DNA of 59,084 bases from a virus (Duplodnaviria; Heunggongvirae; Uroviricota; Caudoviricetes), in the IMG/VR virus record IMGVR_UViG_2703718809_000006; one strand, 5' to 3'. This document shows, in pieces, positions 12,958-20,343 of this stretch. The first letter of the stretch is position 1, and every line of letters starts with the position of its first letter. Made by a program: the position numbers and the translations under genes. The notes below the pieces were generated by a model. That model was not told where the DNA came from and did no database searches. It saw only the letters and a program-made list of their open reading frames with translations.

Positions 12958-13044
12958 ATGAACACGGCATTCAAAATCATTATGGCCGCGATCTATTTCT
13001 GGCTGTTCTCTATCACTTTTGGCGGCATCGTCGCACATGGGTAA
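12958..13044 (+). CDS. Small hydrophobic peptide (28 aa, MNTAFKIIMAAIYFWLFSITFGGIVAHG), not in the ORF track
   Basis: ATG preceded by AGGAG and the CCAATCAATCA leader module; single predicted TM segment. Confidence 0.35.
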   Translation: MNTAFKIIMAAIYFWLFSITFGGIVAHG

Positions 13045-13053
13045 GGGGGATGC

Positions 13054-13635
13054 ATGAAAGGCGAAGTGAAAGAGCGCGGCATGATTTTTAACGATGAGAT
13101 GGTCCGGGCAATTCTTGGCGGGAATAAAACACAGACTCGCAGGATTGTTGAAGAAAAATTCTATGGACGGGCAGTGGCCGCAGAGTTGCTTGCCAAGCAT
13201 TGTCCATATGGTCAACCGGGCGATCGTATTTGGGTTCGCGAAACCTACCGGGTACATGGCAAAGCGACGGACGTCGCAACGCTGGTTTATCGCGCAAGCG
13301 TGCGTAACTCCTGGACAGAACAAACGCACCGGGTTCCGGTCGAGGTTTGTAATAAACCAGTATCAGAAAAGTGGACGCCATCAATTCACATGCCGCGCTG
13401 GGCATCGCGCATTCTTCTGGAAATTACCAACGTGCGCGTTGAGCGGTTGAACGATATCAGCGAATGCGATGCAAGGGCTGAGGGCGCACCAACAGAATCG
13501 ACCCTCATTGGCGATAAGCATTACCCAGGGTTCCGTAGCCTATGGAAATCAATTTATGGCGAAGATAGTTGGAACGCTAATCCTTGGGTGTGGGTAATAG
13601 AGTTTGAGCGTATTCAGGGGGCAACCAGTGAGTGA
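13054..13635 (+). CDS. Hypothetical protein (possibly ASCH-like)
   Basis: N-terminal 'MIFNDEMVRAILGGNKTQTRR' motif common in small phage proteins. Confidence 0.4.
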   Translation: MKGEVKERGMIFNDEMVRAILGGNKTQTRRIVEEKFYGRAVAAELLAKHCPYGQPGDRIWVRETYRVHGKATDVATLVYRASVRNSWTEQTHRVPVEVCNKPVSEKWTPSIHMPRWASRILLEITNVRVERLNDISECDARAEGAPTESTLIGDKHYPGFRSLWKSIYGEDSWNANPWVWVIEFERIQGATSE

Positions 13636-13888
13636 GTCAAAATGCCAAATTAATGGCAACAAGATAGAACCGTGCGCGGCGTTGGCACAATCCCTGGAGC
13701 ATGACGCTGAATACACGACGCGAAAAGGTCTGCTGAAATACAAAATCTATAACCATGAATTAATTCATTCACAAGACCTGATCATGCTGCGGTCTGGTGA
13801 ATTTTCTAAATCGCCTATTCGAGTTTCATTTTGCCCGTTCTGTGGTGAAAGTCTGAAAACGTGGGAAGCGGAGGCAACCAGTGAATAA
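13625..13888 (+). CDS. Small Cys-containing protein
   Basis: GTG start overlapping the upstream stop within the GGGGCAACCAGTGA junction module; 'CPFCGESL' motif. Confidence 0.4.
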   Translation, partial: PVSESKCQINGNKIEPCAALAQSLEHDAEYTTRKGLLKYKIYNHELIHSQDLIMLRSGEFSKSPIRVSFCPFCGESLKTWEAEATSE

Positions 13889-14525
13889 CCGCTTTTACAT
13901 GATGTGCTTGCGTGAAACTGTGGGTAATAACGCCTCATTCCATTGCCATAACGGCAATGGTTACAGTTCTGATATCGATCGCGCTCATGTTTACACGCTG
14001 GAAGAAGCCCAAAAAGCCTGGAATTGTGGACGAGATATCGATCAGCCTGTTTGCGCTGATAGCGTGGATGCAATGGCTGTGTGGCACGTTGATTGCCAGT
14101 ACATCCCCACAGAAAGCCTGATTGAGTCAGATTGCACTGCGTATGTGGCCTACAAAAAAGGTAGCTGGAACGGCAACGATGTTTACTGGCTTCAACACGG
14201 TGGATTGCCAACAGATGACTTCAGTAAAGCGACCATCTTTAGCGTCGCCAACAAAAACGAACCAGGAATAGTTTGGTTGCCATTTTCCATTGCTGATGCA
14301 GCAAAGCGTCGGACGTTCAATATCAATAACTTTAACCGCAGAACAATGGTTCAGGGCGCAGGTTTGGTCATGCCTGACTGGTTGAAAGAGCAGAACAGAA
14401 GAAAGAAGTCGCGAAGCGGGAAGGTGCGTTGGAATTGTCCGCATTGCGGAAAAATAACCTGGCAGTACAGCCCATATGATTTTGAAGGCTGTAGTGATTA
14501 CAACTGTGAAGGATGGCGAGAATGA
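13881..14525 (+). CDS. Cys-rich protein with C-terminal zinc-ribbon-like motif
   Basis: GTG start inside the GGAGGCAACCAGTGA junction; 'CPHCG...C..C' near the C-terminus. Confidence 0.45.
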   Translation: MNNRFYMMCLRETVGNNASFHCHNGNGYSSDIDRAHVYTLEEAQKAWNCGRDIDQPVCADSVDAMAVWHVDCQYIPTESLIESDCTAYVAYKKGSWNGNDVYWLQHGGLPTDDFSKATIFSVANKNEPGIVWLPFSIADAAKRRTFNINNFNRRTMVQGAGLVMPDWLKEQNRRKKSRSGKVRWNCPHCGKITWQYSPYDFEGCSDYNCEGWRE

Positions 14526-15109
14526 CAATTGACTATCAGGCACTGCGTGAGGCGGCAGTTGCAGTAGAAACAGAACCTATGCATCAAAATTTTGTGGCGT
14601 TTCGTATGGCGTTCACGCCATCGGTGGCACTGGCACTACTGGATGAAATTAAGCGGCTGGAAGACACAAATATTGATGCTATGTGCCGTATTGCAGAGCT
14701 TGAGACTAATCTCGCGGCGCTGGTGGCAGAGAACGCCGGACTGAAACACGCAATGGCCGTAACTCATGAGCATGTGTCGGTCACGGATGCAGGGCAGGCC
14801 GGAGTTGCTGCAATGATTATCAACGATGCCCTGCACCACAGCGAAACTCCAGCTACCGATGCTTTTCTAGCTGAAGTGAAGACTGAAGCACGCAAGGAAG
14901 GCGCTTATTTTGTGGCGAACAGAATGCTGGCTGCCTGGGAAGCTGGTTTTATTGATGATACTGCGAAGAACGCCGCGGATATTGCCCGGATGATTCTTAC
15001 CTCTACTGAGTTTATGGCTAATGCGCCGGAAGGCGATTTTGACCGCTCATTCTCTGATGGCGTTCTCGAAGATATCGCCGACCAGCTTCGAAAAGGAGGC
15101 AACCAGTGA
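14513..15109 (+). CDS. Hypothetical protein, tandem paralog 1
   Basis: Shares the N-terminal 'IDYQALREAA' block and an identical ~29-nt DNA stretch with the next gene. Confidence 0.45.
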   Translation: MARMTIDYQALREAAVAVETEPMHQNFVAFRMAFTPSVALALLDEIKRLEDTNIDAMCRIAELETNLAALVAENAGLKHAMAVTHEHVSVTDAGQAGVAAMIINDALHHSETPATDAFLAEVKTEARKEGAYFVANRMLAAWEAGFIDDTAKNAADIARMILTSTEFMANAPEGDFDRSFSDGVLEDIADQLRKGGNQ

Positions 15110-15804
15110 GCAAGATTGACTATCAGGCACTGCGTGAGGCGGCGGAACGTGCAATTCCAGCAATGGAACGCCTGTTAATGTTGCCAGCTGATGATGATTT
15201 GTTAAGTGAACAGGAACTTAAAGATTACGGTGTGGATATTGATGCGCTCAACGCCTTCAAATTTCTGGCCGGACCAGAAACCGTGCTGGCACTACTGGAT
15301 GAACGGGAAAGAAACCAGCAATACATCAAACGCCGCGACCAGGAGAACGAGGATATTGCGCTAACGGTAGGGAAGCTGCGTGTTGAGCTTGAGGAGACAA
15401 AATCAAAACTCAACGAGCAGCGTGAGTATTACGAAGGTGTTATCTCGGATGGAAGTAAGCGTATTGCTGAACTGGAGAAAAGCGAAGAGCAACTCATTAA
15501 CGAGCGTGACCATGCTGAGTCTGCTTTAGCTGATATGTATTTTGCAGCAACCGGGGATAGGCCTGAGTGGAGTAACTGGTTCGGTTTTTCAGATGCAGTA
15601 GATGCCGTAGTTGACAGAATTGCTGATTTAGAAGCTAAACAGCCATCGCCAGTAGTACCTGAAGGACTGATTAAAGCGGTGCGTTTTTATGAGCAGGTAA
15701 AACGTGAGAACCCGCCAGTCGAAACCGGAGCATGGAAAGACGCTGTTGACTGGGTGCTCAGAGAAGCTTGCCAGACTGTAAACATTGGTATCAAAGGAGA
15801 GTGA
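15106..15804 (+). CDS. Hypothetical protein, tandem paralog 2 (coiled-coil)
   Basis: GTG start inside the GGAGGCAACCAGTGA junction; N-terminus homologous to the previous ORF. Confidence 0.45.
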   Translation: MSKIDYQALREAAERAIPAMERLLMLPADDDLLSEQELKDYGVDIDALNAFKFLAGPETVLALLDERERNQQYIKRRDQENEDIALTVGKLRVELEETKSKLNEQREYYEGVISDGSKRIAELEKSEEQLINERDHAESALADMYFAATGDRPEWSNWFGFSDAVDAVVDRIADLEAKQPSPVVPEGLIKAVRFYEQVKRENPPVETGAWKDAVDWVLREACQTVNIGIKGE

Positions 15805-16298
15805 GAGTGCAGATTTCACCGGTTACTCTTCGTGTTGCGAAGGCATTTATATCCAGACATCACCGACACAATAAACCCCCGGTGGGGCATAAATTCAGCA
15901 TTGGTCTGAGAAATGATGCCGGAGAATTGATAGGTGTGGCGACAGCCGGTCGACCTGTTGCACGACATTTGGACGATGGATTAACGCTTGAAGTAAATCG
16001 CACATGTACCACAGGAGAACGCAACGCTAACAGCGCGCTTTATGGTGCTGTCTGGCGGGCAGCAAAAGCTATGGGTTATCAACGTTGTATTACGTACACC
16101 CGGGCAGATGAATCAGGAGCATCTCTTCGCGCAGCTGGTTTTGTTCGTGTGAAAGAGCTTCCTCCAAGAAAAAGCTGGGCGGAATCAAGCGTCGCCCTGC
16201 GGAGTAAACGCGATCCGGTCGGAAACGGTGGTGTTCCTCGTGTGCTCTGGGAAATCAGGAGAATGAGTACCACTGGCATTCGCATCAAAGGAGAGTGA
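15804..16298 (+). CDS. Hypothetical protein
   Basis: GTG start after the ATCAAAGGAGAGTGA junction module; 164 codons; no motif I can place. Confidence 0.4.
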   Translation, partial: RVQISPVTLRVAKAFISRHHRHNKPPVGHKFSIGLRNDAGELIGVATAGRPVARHLDDGLTLEVNRTCTTGERNANSALYGAVWRAAKAMGYQRCITYTRADESGASLRAAGFVRVKELPPRKSWAESSVALRSKRDPVGNGGVPRVLWEIRRMSTTGIRIKGE

Positions 16299-16299
16299 T

Positions 16300-16563
16300 A
16301 TGGCAACTTTAACAAAAAAAGAACGGGCATGGTTGAATGAATTACAGGACGTTCTTGATCGCTGCCCATCACCGAAAAAAATTGGTTTTTACACCATTGG
16401 CGATAAAAGCATTTACCTGTATGACCTGCGCCGCATGGATGAAATCATGGAGGCTCTTGATAATCGTTCGTCGATGGATTGGTGTGTTGCTGTTCATGAT
16501 ATGAATGCAGGGTTTGATGAAAAGATTTTGTTCCCCTCATCAGTTGAAAGCACTGCGGGTTAA
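16300..16563 (+). CDS. Small hypothetical protein
   Basis: ATG after a second copy of the ATCAAAGGAGAGTGA junction module. Confidence 0.4.
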   Translation: MATLTKKERAWLNELQDVLDRCPSPKKIGFYTIGDKSIYLYDLRRMDEIMEALDNRSSMDWCVAVHDMNAGFDEKILFPSSVESTAG

Positions 16564-16573
16564 GGAGTAACAC

Positions 16574-17437
16574 ATGACCACTATTACCAAAGAACGTATT
16601 GAATTGTTCATTAAAAATCCGCTTGAAAACGGGCTTACCCGTGGTGAACAAATGGAACTGGCACGGATTGCGCTGGCATCGCTGGAAGCAGAGCCGGCGG
16701 CAAAGATTATAGCTCATTACCCATTAGGGGTTGACGTAGGCAAACAAAAATTCGTACAGGCCATTAGAGAGCTTCCTGACTTTGGCGGATATCTATTTGC
16801 CGCCCCTCCAGCGCCGATAGTGCCGGAAGAAATGTATTGGCAGGATGCGCCAGTTGAAGGCAGCAGCAAAGCGGCTGCATACGCTACAGGCTGGAACGAT
16901 TGCCGCGAAGCCATGCTTCAGTCCGGAAACTTTCGGGAAAACAAGAATTCGTCAACCAATAATTTTCGGGAAATCGCGGAAACGTCAACCAACTATCCGG
17001 TAATTCCTAGTGAGGTGTTGTCCGCAATCTTGAAGGTTGCCAAGATTCGTGCCGATTTCGATGATTTTGACGGTGACAGGCGAGGTATCGGTGATTGTCT
17101 GGATGAGGCTGAGCAAGAGCTTATCGTTACCATTAACAAATATGCCAGTCAGTTGGCAGCAGAACCTATAGCGCCTAATGACGTTCGAGAGCAGACAGCC
17201 ATTCCGCAAGTTCCGGTAACTCCGGATGGTTGGATAAGCTGTAGTGAGCGAATGCCGGATACCAAAACAGCCGTTCTTGTTGCCAGGGAGTTTGACAGGA
17301 AAGGTGACTGGCGAATGAAATGGGCGACTTACATCCCGGGGCATCCTGACGCTAATGATGGGTGGGTAATACCTGGTGCGTCGTGGATTCCATCACACTG
17401 GATGCCGCTACCAGAACCGCCGCAGGAGGCGAAATGA
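16574..17437 (+). CDS. Phage protein with DUF551-like C-terminal domain
   Basis: C-terminal 'W...VLVA...W...HWMPLPEPP' pattern; imperfect intragenic tandem repeat at about 16921-16990. Confidence 0.5.
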   Translation: MTTITKERIELFIKNPLENGLTRGEQMELARIALASLEAEPAAKIIAHYPLGVDVGKQKFVQAIRELPDFGGYLFAAPPAPIVPEEMYWQDAPVEGSSKAAAYATGWNDCREAMLQSGNFRENKNSSTNNFREIAETSTNYPVIPSEVLSAILKVAKIRADFDDFDGDRRGIGDCLDEAEQELIVTINKYASQLAAEPIAPNDVREQTAIPQVPVTPDGWISCSERMPDTKTAVLVAREFDRKGDWRMKWATYIPGHPDANDGWVIPGASWIPSHWMPLPEPPQEAK

Positions 17438-17694
17438 TGGATGTAAAAGAGAAGGTTTTGCAGGTGATGCGTTCCCGTGCTGCCCTACAAGAGAAAGCTC
17501 TCGGCGGTGAATATCCATTCACGATAGCAACCTGGAATCTGCGGTTGGCAATGGAGAAGGAATTTCCTGATGAAGAATGGCGCTCGGCAGATTTGCGCAA
17601 AATTCTTATGGAGCTGGCTAAAGACGGAACAGTATCCAAAGATACCCATGCCAGCCGGATTGGTCAGGCGGTATGGAGACTTGAGGTGCGGTAA
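17434..17694 (+). CDS. Small hypothetical protein
   Basis: ATG overlapping the upstream stop; 86 codons. Confidence 0.4.
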   Translation: MMDVKEKVLQVMRSRAALQEKALGGEYPFTIATWNLRLAMEKEFPDEEWRSADLRKILMELAKDGTVSKDTHASRIGQAVWRLEVR

Positions 17695-17768
17695 TGAGCT
17701 GGCCTGAAGCATTTGCGATTGTAGGCGTAGCTATGGCGATTGCCGCTATTTTTATCTTCTGGGGGTAA
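17694..17768 (+). CDS. Small hydrophobic peptide (24 aa, MSWPEAFAIVGVAMAIAAIFIFWG), not in the ORF track
   Basis: ATG overlaps the upstream TAA; one TM-like segment. Confidence 0.3.
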   Translation: MSWPEAFAIVGVAMAIAAIFIFWG

Positions 17769-17770
17769 CG

Positions 17771-18004
17771 ATGGGAAAATTAACTTTTGTTGTCGAATTT
17801 GAGGATGGCAAAGAGCCACCTGTTAGCGCCAATCTTGATGTTGCTGGTGGCAGGCTGGTTTCGGTTCTATTTGGTGATTACCGCGACGACTTCTTTCAGC
17901 CTGAAGAAGTTGATGTAGTGCGAGAAGCATTAAACGAGCTAAGTGTTGATAACGATGATGCTCATGCGGAAATCATCAAAAAAATGGAACTGCTAACTCA
18001 CTAA
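17771..18004 (+). CDS. Small acidic hypothetical protein
   Basis: 77-aa ORF in operon context. Confidence 0.4.
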   Translation: MGKLTFVVEFEDGKEPPVSANLDVAGGRLVSVLFGDYRDDFFQPEEVDVVREALNELSVDNDDAHAEIIKKMELLTH

Positions 18005-18052
18005 ATTATCAATTATGGTGCTATCACCTACGACACCGAGAGAAAATTTATA

Positions 18053-18175
18053 ATGTCAAAAGTAAATGTTTTGATTTTTTCAGCAATTGTTGGCTTTGGT
18101 TTTACTGCCGGAGTGCAGATTTATATTGCGTGGGAAAAAATCATCAACTACGCATGGAGTTGTTTTATTAAGTGA
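18053..18175 (+). CDS. Small hydrophobic peptide (40 aa, MSKVNVLIFSAIVGFGFTAGVQIYIAWEKIINYAWSCFIK), not in the ORF track
   Basis: ATG-initiated ORF with one TM-like segment upstream of the 18183 gene. Confidence 0.3.
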   Translation: MSKVNVLIFSAIVGFGFTAGVQIYIAWEKIINYAWSCFIK

Positions 18176-18182
18176 GGTAAGT

Positions 18183-18476
18183 ATGTGGAGAGGTAATAGT
18201 CATGGCAAAAGCCAGATGATACTTACCGAATATCAGTTTGACCATAAAACCAATAAATCACGTTCAGTATATTTGCTTCGGCACAATAGCCGCGTAAGGA
18301 ATACCGTGCTGGAGCAAAATCTGACTGTTGAAATGGATAATTACGGTGGCTTCAAGCCAACAATTTCGCTTGATGATTTTCCTCGTGGTTTAAGCGAAAG
18401 AGAAGCAATGCTGAAATTAGCAGAATGGCTACAAAGATTAAGCATTGCTATTGAAGATAACTGGTCTGAACCTTAA
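18183..18476 (+). CDS. Hypothetical protein
   Basis: Probable ATG start at 18183 (MWRGNSHGK...) within track ORF 18087-18476. Confidence 0.4.
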   Translation: MWRGNSHGKSQMILTEYQFDHKTNKSRSVYLLRHNSRVRNTVLEQNLTVEMDNYGGFKPTISLDDFPRGLSEREAMLKLAEWLQRLSIAIEDNWSEP

Positions 18477-18482
18477 ATTTAT

Positions 18483-18857
18483 ATGATGACACTAAAACAT
18501 TTTCTTGACCGCCCATTATGGGCGGCAGCCGCAGGCTATGACTTTAATTATATGGATTGCATGTCTTATACTGCCAATGCATACGACCATTCGTTCAGCC
18601 TGCTGTTTAATTCTTTAAGAATATTGCCGGAAACAGAAGTTGGAGAGCTTCATTTATGGCTATTGGGCTTTATCGCGGCTGTCGTTGGTATTGCTGTATG
18701 GCCTTTTATTTTCTGGCTGGTGGCTGTTGTAGTGTGGTTTAAGTGCAAGACGTACCGGAGAAAGTATTTCTTAGGTGATGGAATGACTGATATTGCCAAA
18801 ATGAACATTGAAAAATGGACTAAGGAATGTGAAAAGAAATGGCGCAAAAAGAAATGA
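18483..18857 (+). CDS. Membrane protein
   Basis: Hydrophobic segment 'LWLLGFIAAVVGIAVWPFIFWLVAVVVWF' followed by a basic tail. Confidence 0.45.
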   Translation: MMTLKHFLDRPLWAAAAGYDFNYMDCMSYTANAYDHSFSLLFNSLRILPETEVGELHLWLLGFIAAVVGIAVWPFIFWLVAVVVWFKCKTYRRKYFLGDGMTDIAKMNIEKWTKECEKKWRKKK

Positions 18858-20205: not shown

Positions 20206-20343
20206 TTAAGTAAGCCAGTGCATAATTCCATTTTTTACTGACCTTAAAAGCAAAATCAAAACGATGATGAGGATAATAGCCAGAATCTGGCTAATAATAG
20301 GCGCATCTAAAAATGCACTCAGGAACTGAAAAAAAGCGTTCAT
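20206..20343 (-). CDS. Small hydrophobic peptide (45 aa, MNAFFQFLSAFLDAPIISQILAIILIIVLILLLRSVKNGIMHWLT); candidate type I toxin-like or membrane peptide
   Basis: Minus-strand ATG-to-TAA ORF inside an otherwise ORF-poor region; stop lies in the perfect palindrome TTAATGTTTCA/CTGAAACATTAA. Confidence 0.3.
   Translation of the reverse strand: MNAFFQFLSAFLDAPIISQILAIILIIVLILLLRSVKNGIMHWLT

Follow-up and report, generated by a model that had tools for sequence, protein, structure and literature searches.

Three short open reading frames of a P1-like phage-plasmid are probable genes for small membrane proteins, one of them in the widespread MSWPEAF family

Bacterial proteins such as AcrZ, MgrB, MgtS, KdpF and CydX/CydH cross the membrane once, are 25-50 residues long and act by packing on a larger membrane protein. 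We compared with these and other small membrane proteins three short open reading frames (ORF1, ORF2 and ORF3) in IMG/VR virus record IMGVR_UViG_2703718809_000006 (Caudoviricetes), a stretch of 59,084 nucleotides (nt) called the window below. The region examined is 99.5-100% identical to Salmonella phage SJ46 and also matches P7 and other P1-like phage-plasmids (genus Punavirus); judged by its sequence it is a P1/P7/SJ46-like phage-plasmid. We give a probability of roughly 0.6 to the reading that all three ORFs are translated and encode small proteins that span the inner membrane once, that they belong to a repressor-controlled early operon, and that they modulate a membrane protein. The likeness to the AcrZ-type regulators lies in small-xxx-small packing motifs in ORF2 (G11/A15/A17) and ORF3 (G14/G16/G20). 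The two groups differ in that there is no sequence homology between them (the best NCBIfam match is CydH at E=0.15, far below the cut-off), and in that the peptides of the window are phage-encoded and placed in a predicted repressor-controlled early operon. The three ORFs and their ribosome-binding sites (RBS) are as follows.

12945-12949, + strand: AGGAG, RBS of ORF1, 8 nt before its ATG
12958-13044, + strand: ORF1, 28 amino acids (aa), MNTAFKIIMAAIYFWLFSITFGGIVAHG, predicted single-pass hydrophobic peptide and first cistron
17683-17688, + strand: GAGGTG, RBS of ORF2, 5 nt before its ATG and inside the 3' end of an eaa-like gene
17694-17768, + strand: ORF2, 24 aa, MSWPEAFAIVGVAMAIAAIFIFWG, a shortened allele of the MSWPEAF family
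18053-18175, + strand: ORF3, 40 aa, MSKVNVLIFSAIVGFGFTAGVQIYIAWEKIINYAWSCFIK, a member of phrog_5525, with a predicted transmembrane (TM) helix that carries GFGxxxG, and a conserved W27

An earlier note on this DNA, made from the letters alone, had proposed these ORFs as hydrophobic peptide genes. All three are found in the sequence and its translation where the note had placed them, each begins with ATG, and each has the single TM-like segment ascribed to it (best 17-residue Kyte-Doolittle (KD) mean 1.84 in ORF1, 2.77 in ORF2 and 1.85 in ORF3). The ribosome-binding context or overlap with an upstream stop that the note had seen at each start is evident for ORF1 (AGGAG) and ORF2 (GAGGTG and TAATG), but is only a weak GAGAG for ORF3. 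Among the 270 ATG-initiated ORFs of 24-45 aa in the window, about 6% are as hydrophobic as ORF1 or ORF3 and 0.7% as hydrophobic as ORF2. With composition controlled, the hydrophobic segment is unusual in ORF2 (p=0.0007) and ORF1 (p=0.028) and not unusual in ORF3, which is 38% T (p=0.19); no more than 4% of the composition-matched shuffles of ORF3 remain open. On a rough gene map, hydrophobic small ORFs number 6/34 in gaps versus 20/351 within genes, a noisy enrichment of little weight in which spurious long ORFs partly mask ORF2 and ORF3. Hydrophobicity by itself is within chance, and it is the conservation of the frame in relatives that sets all three ORFs apart. Loss of the reading frame in related genomes, set beforehand as the check that could overturn the proposal, refutes none of the three. 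The comparison of synonymous with nonsynonymous change speaks for ORF2 and ORF3 when diverged homologs are used, but is borderline at best for ORF1. The ORF2 family and ORF3 are very probably real genes, and ORF1 is probably one too; the gene call is best supported for ORF2 at the level of its family, strongly for ORF3 and moderately for ORF1.

ORF2 begins with the heptapeptide MSWPEAF. A scan of viral contigs with these seven N-terminal codons as the only anchor gave 125 occurrences, which comprise 40 DNA alleles and encode 32 different peptides that fall into about 10 deep groups. The total length is 23-29 residues (ending 16-22 codons after the motif) in 122 of the 125 occurrences and 30 of the 32 peptides, and the chance of such a length is 0.13 per lineage. 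A hydrophobic stretch follows the motif in every peptide (KD 1.2-3.0), and K or R stands within the last five residues in 30 of 32, commonly as ...ICRWG/W. In 11 diverged alleles the variable sites number 11/10/21 at codon positions 1/2/3, the ratio of nonsynonymous to synonymous differences (pN/pS) is 0.11-0.5, and many pairs are significant (p down to <=0.001). Residues M1, W3, P4, E5, A6, F7, V10, G11, A17 and W26 are invariant in these alleles despite synonymous codon change, and the TM segment of the family is hypervariable. Intermediate forms, e.g., MSWPEAFAIVGVAISIALIIFSICRWG and MSWPEAFSNVGIAMAVALAVYSICRWG, came from a database search whose query was the three ORF2 alleles concatenated; their contexts are a position before a DUF4222 gene beside xis/int, a position before an AAA-type ATPase gene, and fusion with a second helix. 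MazG, GapR-like and other unrelated genes precede the most divergent members, and in most cases stop and start overlap there as ATGA. This ATGA overlap is present in 11 of 16 contexts of the family; a strong RBS or ATGA is found in nearly all of them. The family has no match in Pfam, PHROGs, NCBIfam or PADLOC, and we found no paper with the peptide strings of the three ORFs or the MSWPEAF motif (the pmgT papers that we found are unrelated). MSWPEAF is a real, widespread protein family, previously undescribed, and the ORF2 family is a mobile small module behind many different upstream genes.

In the window, the ATG of ORF2 overlaps the upstream TAA (TAATG) and its stop lies 2 nt before the next ATG (17771), so that ORF2 occupies 75 of the 76 nt in the intergenic gap; related alleles have GGAGGTG or AGGAGG at the RBS position. 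We retrieved 90 loci with the downstream 77-aa gene as anchor. Two alleles occur in close relatives, the 24-aa one of the window and a 27-aa one, MSWPEAF[TA]TVGIVMAAALGLYSICRWW. Many substitutions and an indel of 9 nt that keeps the frame separate the two, with the start and stop positions unchanged. In a Superficieibacter genome MTWPLAILGCVVFVSGCALIAWMVWLDYRGSK abuts a distant homolog of the 77-aa anchor gene. The window allele shares with the family the MSWPEAF start, one hydrophobic helix and a length (24 aa) within the usual range, and is one of the 2 peptides in 32 with no K or R in the last five residues. We rejected the idea that ORF2 is a filler linked to the 77-aa gene: the majority of the distant homologs of that gene lack ORF2, and the peptide precedes many unrelated genes. 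A separate observation concerns the first 13 nt of ORF2 (ATGAGCTGGCCTG, 17694-17706), the point at which the homology shared with many Stx and lambdoid phages stops. RCS47 has an ASCH-domain gene (4974-5255) whose annotated start is at the equivalent stop-start overlap position. The segment 17694-17706 resembles a junction at which recombination has recurred, placed just within the start of a gene.

ORF3 is a full-length member of phrog_5525 (PHROGs v4; E=1.1e-24, 86.9 bits, residues 1-40 on positions 1-40 of 40) and differs from it in nothing of kind; what is described here is the conserved core and the purifying selection on it. A profile search of 1.84 billion representative proteins recovered distant homologs (E=2e-10 to 1e-4), e.g., MDKCNALLYAMVIGFGLAAGVRVYIAWESLINLAWSAIR... 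and MSKIDLLFYSVIVGFGFSGGMRAFIVWDSLISNLMKLVIPF, that match the same phrog_5525 profile. Their genes come after DUF551- or Ead-type genes and have GGAGGTG-type RBSs and stop-start overlaps. Over the 38-codon core, synonymous differences are saturated (pS 0.7-0.84) versus pN of 0.25-0.45 (p 1e-4 to 0.03). In homologs with about half of the core residues identical, purifying selection is evident on the GFGxxxG...W core, and K3, G14, F15, G16, G20 and W27 are invariant in 7 homologs with synonymous codon variation. Among 62 close loci ORF3 is intact in 60, the exceptions being one change of ATG to CTG and one +1 frameshift in a T-run; an insertion of 9 nt in the most divergent close copy leaves the frame intact. 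Because the deep homologs show purifying selection, ORF3 is best taken as a genuine gene whose neutral look among close relatives, described below, reflects low power.

The placement of the three ORFs was examined with the following features.

12353-12859: pap, upstream of the operator and all three ORFs
12859-12875, + strand: C1 repressor operator OpmgT (formerly Op88 in P1; Op(hea) in P7), ATTGCTCTAATAAATAT, from the P1/P7 annotation mapped by alignment
12860-12903, + strand: predicted sigma-70 promoters P2pmgT and P1pmgT, overlapping the operator, from the P1 curated annotation mapped by alignment
12908-12930, no strand assigned: GC-rich hairpin of 10 base pairs, from a terminator scan
17771-18004, + strand: 77-aa soluble acidic protein, phrog_3876, between ORF2 and ORF3
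18183-18476, + strand: 97-aa protein, phrog_1258, whose RBS (GAGG) overlaps the ORF3 stop codon

The operator lies directly 3' of pap, is the same as that of P7 and is one base off that of P1. The two mapped promoters fall below the threshold of a simple promoter scan, which did not recover them. From the operator (12859) to about 20.2 kilobases all genes are on the + strand and are of the lambdoid 'ea'-type accessory kind: two Ead/Ea22 genes, genes for a Mom-like protein and a DUF551 protein, an eaa-type gene and several PHROGs of unknown function. Since the operator heads this + strand run, ORF1, ORF2 and ORF3 are, as predicted from the layout, cistrons of one C1-controlled operon, with ORF1 as the first cistron. 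Purifying selection on the 77-aa phrog_3876 gene is strong, with 22 synonymous versus 13 nonsynonymous events. Two genes 3' of ORF3, the 124-aa phrog_2638 protein (18483-18857) has a long hydrophobic stretch, LHLWLLGFIAAVVGIAVWPFIFWLVAVVVWF, and with it this short stretch of the operon would encode at least three membrane proteins.

This layout bears on the functions put forward in the earlier note, namely that such peptides might be superinfection-exclusion or lysis-timing factors. Some known exclusion and antiholin proteins are indeed small membrane proteins. Exclusion proteins must be made in the lysogen, and expression there appears unlikely for the ORFs of the window, as the C1 operator heads the operon and the promoter scan detected no internal + strand promoter close to ORF2 or ORF3. 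Superinfection exclusion is thus unlikely because repressor control should silence the ORFs in the lysogen. Lysis timing found no support: a holin or antiholin gene would be expected in a lysis cassette beside endolysin or spanin genes, but the neighbours here are Ead/Ea22, DUF551, eaa-type and unknown-function PHROG genes, with no holin, endolysin or spanin gene among them. A PADLOC scan also gave no match for any of the three peptides, and we regard either role as highly improbable.

ORF1 was examined in two sets of loci. With the upstream hairpin DNA as anchor, 80 viral-contig loci were fetched, 76 of them informative, and an alignment query retrieved 64 metagenome loci. ORF1 is intact in 75 of the 76 and in all 64, i.e., in 139 of 140, and the sole non-intact copy is cut off by an insertion. 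The AGGAG does not vary in the 64 metagenome loci; extraction of the viral-contig loci required part of AGGAG, so that set is no test of its conservation. ORF1 remains next to the promoter module, and at least 3 different sequences follow its stop. In the window the stop lies 9 nt 5' of the ATG of the next gene (13054) and abuts the RBS of that gene. ORF1 is also retained in one context with no co-directional gene downstream, which probably borders a convergent type I restriction locus, judging from comparison with an IncF locus.

The same locus is annotated in SJ46 as a 44-aa 'membrane protein' (YP_009293555) that has the same C-terminal 28 residues and a different start, an ATG at 12910. That ATG lies within the hairpin stem and has no RBS, and a 4-nt leader deletion in two loci (L127 and L129) breaks the 44-aa frame but spares the 28-aa ORF1 and its RBS. 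On both grounds the 28-aa form, the start chosen in the earlier note, is the conserved unit of ORF1, and the 12910 start of the SJ46 record is probably over-extended.

The note had further held that the three ORFs were missed by the ORF track. As to database annotation, this is true of RefSeq/PGAP, which annotates none of them on identical plasmid copies, but not of every source: besides ORF1, the SJ46 GenBank record carries ORF3 as a hypothetical protein, as does the vB_EcoM-813R1 record, and phrog_5525 contains ORF3. ORF2 is annotated in none of the records examined, and no coding sequence is called at ORF1 in P1, P7 or RCS47. Searches of Pfam and NCBIfam gave no match for any of the three peptides, and PHROGs gave none for ORF1 or ORF2. 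In tblastn against phage records the ORF2 24-mer had no match, presumably through low-complexity masking, and a 32-mer gave only noise (E>=5).

Several side observations concern ORF1 in bacterial genomes. It is present in 885 of 5,426 complete E. coli genomes, a count that includes a start-less 84-nt fragment. On the E. coli ST131 plasmid pMB8236_1 (1501-1584) this fragment corresponds to window 12965-13048, lacks the RBS and ATG and lies next to IS1, with a convergent hsdR gene upstream of it; many IncF-type plasmids carry the same fragment. The recurring remnant suggests a past junction of a P1-like element with a type I restriction locus. In several database proteins the frame continues past the ORF1 stop (...VAHGY...), and the sequence that follows is unrelated, a DUF551 C-terminus among it; a few database copies are frameshifted or disrupted. 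Because the read-through fusions begin at the ORF1 stop, there appears to be a recurrent recombination breakpoint between GGGTA and A at window 13042-13044.

A number of points weigh against the reading of all three ORFs as genes for membrane-protein modulators. All ORF1 copies are 89-100% identical and no more distant relatives were found; they show about 7-8 synonymous versus 10 nonsynonymous events, so that selection is borderline at best, and their substitution density is similar to that of the leader. ORF3 has a weak RBS of its own (GAGAG, 10 nt upstream), its hydrophobicity is accounted for by T content, its close relatives look neutral (6 synonymous and 17 nonsynonymous, p=0.51; the flanking genes have 22:13 and 26:18), and there is an 11% chance that its frame survives by luck among them. 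The ORF2 of the window lacks the conserved YSICR/basic tail and ends in ...IFIFWG with no basic residue. In about 40% of the loci with the window-type allele, moreover, ATA replaces ATG. In these loci (L008, L009, L012, L013, L021, L022 and others) a second change, TGA to GGA, opens an in-frame ATG eight codons upstream (METGGEVISWPEAF...), which represents either a shift of the start site or decay of the allele, and selection on the window's allele may be relaxed. The genes around ORF2-family members are a mixed set and point to no partner protein. Translation and membrane insertion are predicted for all three from sequence alone, and the modulator step is drawn by analogy with bacterial small membrane proteins.

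For ORF1 the main alternative is that it is no functional protein gene and that the conserved 150 nt from the OpmgT promoters to the first large gene are a 5' leader, a hairpin with regulatory sequence, in which the frame is open through recent kinship. The close identity of the copies fits this. The synonymous excess is not significant (P=0.13, a figure that includes artefactual mismatches from the truncated locus), the chance of gaining no stop under neutrality is about 0.44, and the curated P1 and P7 annotations have no coding sequence there. The read-through fusions, the rare frameshifts and the start-less IncF remnant could also be expected of a leader. What a leader does not account for is a near-ideal AGGAG 8 nt upstream that is invariant in the 64 metagenome loci, the intact frame in all but one locus, a hydrophobic segment unlikely for its composition, and leader indels that avoid ORF1. 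We therefore consider that explanation rather doubtful, and favor a translated ORF1.

It may also be argued for all three ORFs that only the act of translation matters: they would bridge shuffling gaps, prevent Rho-dependent polarity and couple to the next gene, and the peptides would be incidental. The tight packing is consistent with this, for ORF2 starts in TAATG and ends only 2 nt short of the next ATG, and ORF1 and ORF3 (the latter with TGA) stop right at the RBS of the following gene. So are the ATGA overlap in 11 of the 16 ORF2-family contexts, a minimum-energy fold that pairs ORF1 coding sequence at 13005-13011 with the RBS of the next gene, the near-neutral substitution in ORF1 and in close ORF3 relatives, and the hypervariable TM segment of ORF2. 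Coupling leaves unexplained, however, why about 10 deep lineages keep MSWPEAF with synonymous variation, a length of 23-29 codons, and a hydrophobic core with a basic tail. It also leaves unexplained the six invariant residues of the ORF3 homologs, and ORF1 is kept where no co-directional gene comes next. An explanation by coupling alone is unlikely.

We further considered that the peptides are toxins resembling type I toxins or holins, which would damage the inner membrane by depolarising it and would possibly be checked by an antisense RNA. The peptides resemble Ibs, Ldr, TisB, ShoB and Hok-type toxins in being small, very hydrophobic, of a single helix and on a mobile element, and GxxxG or glycine-zipper motifs, which ORF3 has, occur in pore-forming helices. 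Just upstream of ORF1 is a hairpin that resembles a terminator on the - strand, and two - strand promoter-like sites lie just 3' of ORF3. Those sites are at the level of shuffled sequence (2 versus a mean of 2.5), however, and a consensus scan, which may miss a weak promoter, found no - strand promoter downstream of ORF1. There is no Rfam match above threshold (GcvB over the ORF1 hairpin is sub-threshold, at 20 bits versus a gathering score of 42) and nothing unusual in RNA structure at ORF3 (z=0.03). Type I toxins also differ in that they are stand-alone and translationally repressed and have an antisense RNA, whereas no antisense RNA or promoter for one was detected in these scans, and the ORFs are internal operon cistrons with AGGAG/GAGGTG or a stop-start overlap. 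They also lie at a distance from the lysis genes and outside any late operon. A toxin role is very unlikely on this evidence.

Returning to the reading of membrane-protein modulators, we outline how it might work as a tentative mechanism by analogy with the AcrZ-type proteins. C1 would keep the three ORFs silent in the lysogen, and the peptides would be made when the repressor is lifted by induction or infection. An acidic N-tail, a hydrophobic helix and a basic C-tail favor YidC-dependent translocation of the N-tail, as in proteins of the Pf3 coat type. Members of the ORF2 family have these three parts, with E5 in the short acidic N-tail, and from charge distribution only would be N-out/C-in. 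They differ from the Pf3 coat protein in their length (23-29 aa versus 44) and in not being virion proteins, and the window allele lacks the basic tail. In the inner membrane, ORF2 would thus have its acidic N-tail on the outer side and its C-terminus on the inner side. The small-residue motifs of ORF2 and ORF3 could then pack against another TM helix, and in early lytic development the peptides would bind a membrane protein of host or phage and modulate it. ORF1 would most likely act in the same mode as the others, but could instead serve mainly as a translated leader of the operon. A more specific and quite speculative proposal is that the MSWPEAF peptides are a widespread class of early phage microproteins, too short for usual gene calling, whose conserved periplasm-facing heptapeptide and interchangeable helix target one conserved host envelope machine, e.g., in the divisome, transport or energy coupling.

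Two further observations were made in the region. On the + strand, the hairpin at 12908-12930 lies at about the predicted mRNA 5' end of the OpmgT transcript, in a leader that folds more stably than shuffled sequence (z=-2.17). Read on the - strand, it is followed by TTTTATTTTC and resembles an intrinsic terminator directed away from the operon; we found no - strand promoter or gene for it to terminate. At 20206-20343 on the - strand there is a very hydrophobic 45-aa ATG ORF, MNAFFQFLSAFLDAPIISQILAIILIIVLILLLRSVKNGIMHWLT (best 17-residue KD 3.34), antisense to the pmgV/upfM/upfN-equivalent region. It has no matching feature in the P1, P7 and SJ46 lists for that stretch, in which strands are not displayed.

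These results are useful rather than surprising, as abundant small phage membrane proteins are already expected. They illustrate how the annotation of phages and plasmids systematically loses small hydrophobic proteins: RefSeq/PGAP skips all three ORFs here, and ORF1 and ORF2, at fewer than 30 codons, are under the minimum length of common gene callers. New are a compact and easily searchable family, MSWPEAF followed by a helix and a basic tail, in many temperate phages, and a conserved motif for phrog_5525; the peptides of both families are short enough to be synthesised directly, tagged and used to fish for partners. P1-type phage-plasmids are model elements and carriers of resistance genes, and their C1-controlled pmgT/'hea' operon would gain a first cistron and two membrane peptides. 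If the proposal for the MSWPEAF peptides is true, the family would be a common and overlooked host-takeover effector, from the temperate phages of enterobacteria through to the carriers of GapR-like genes.

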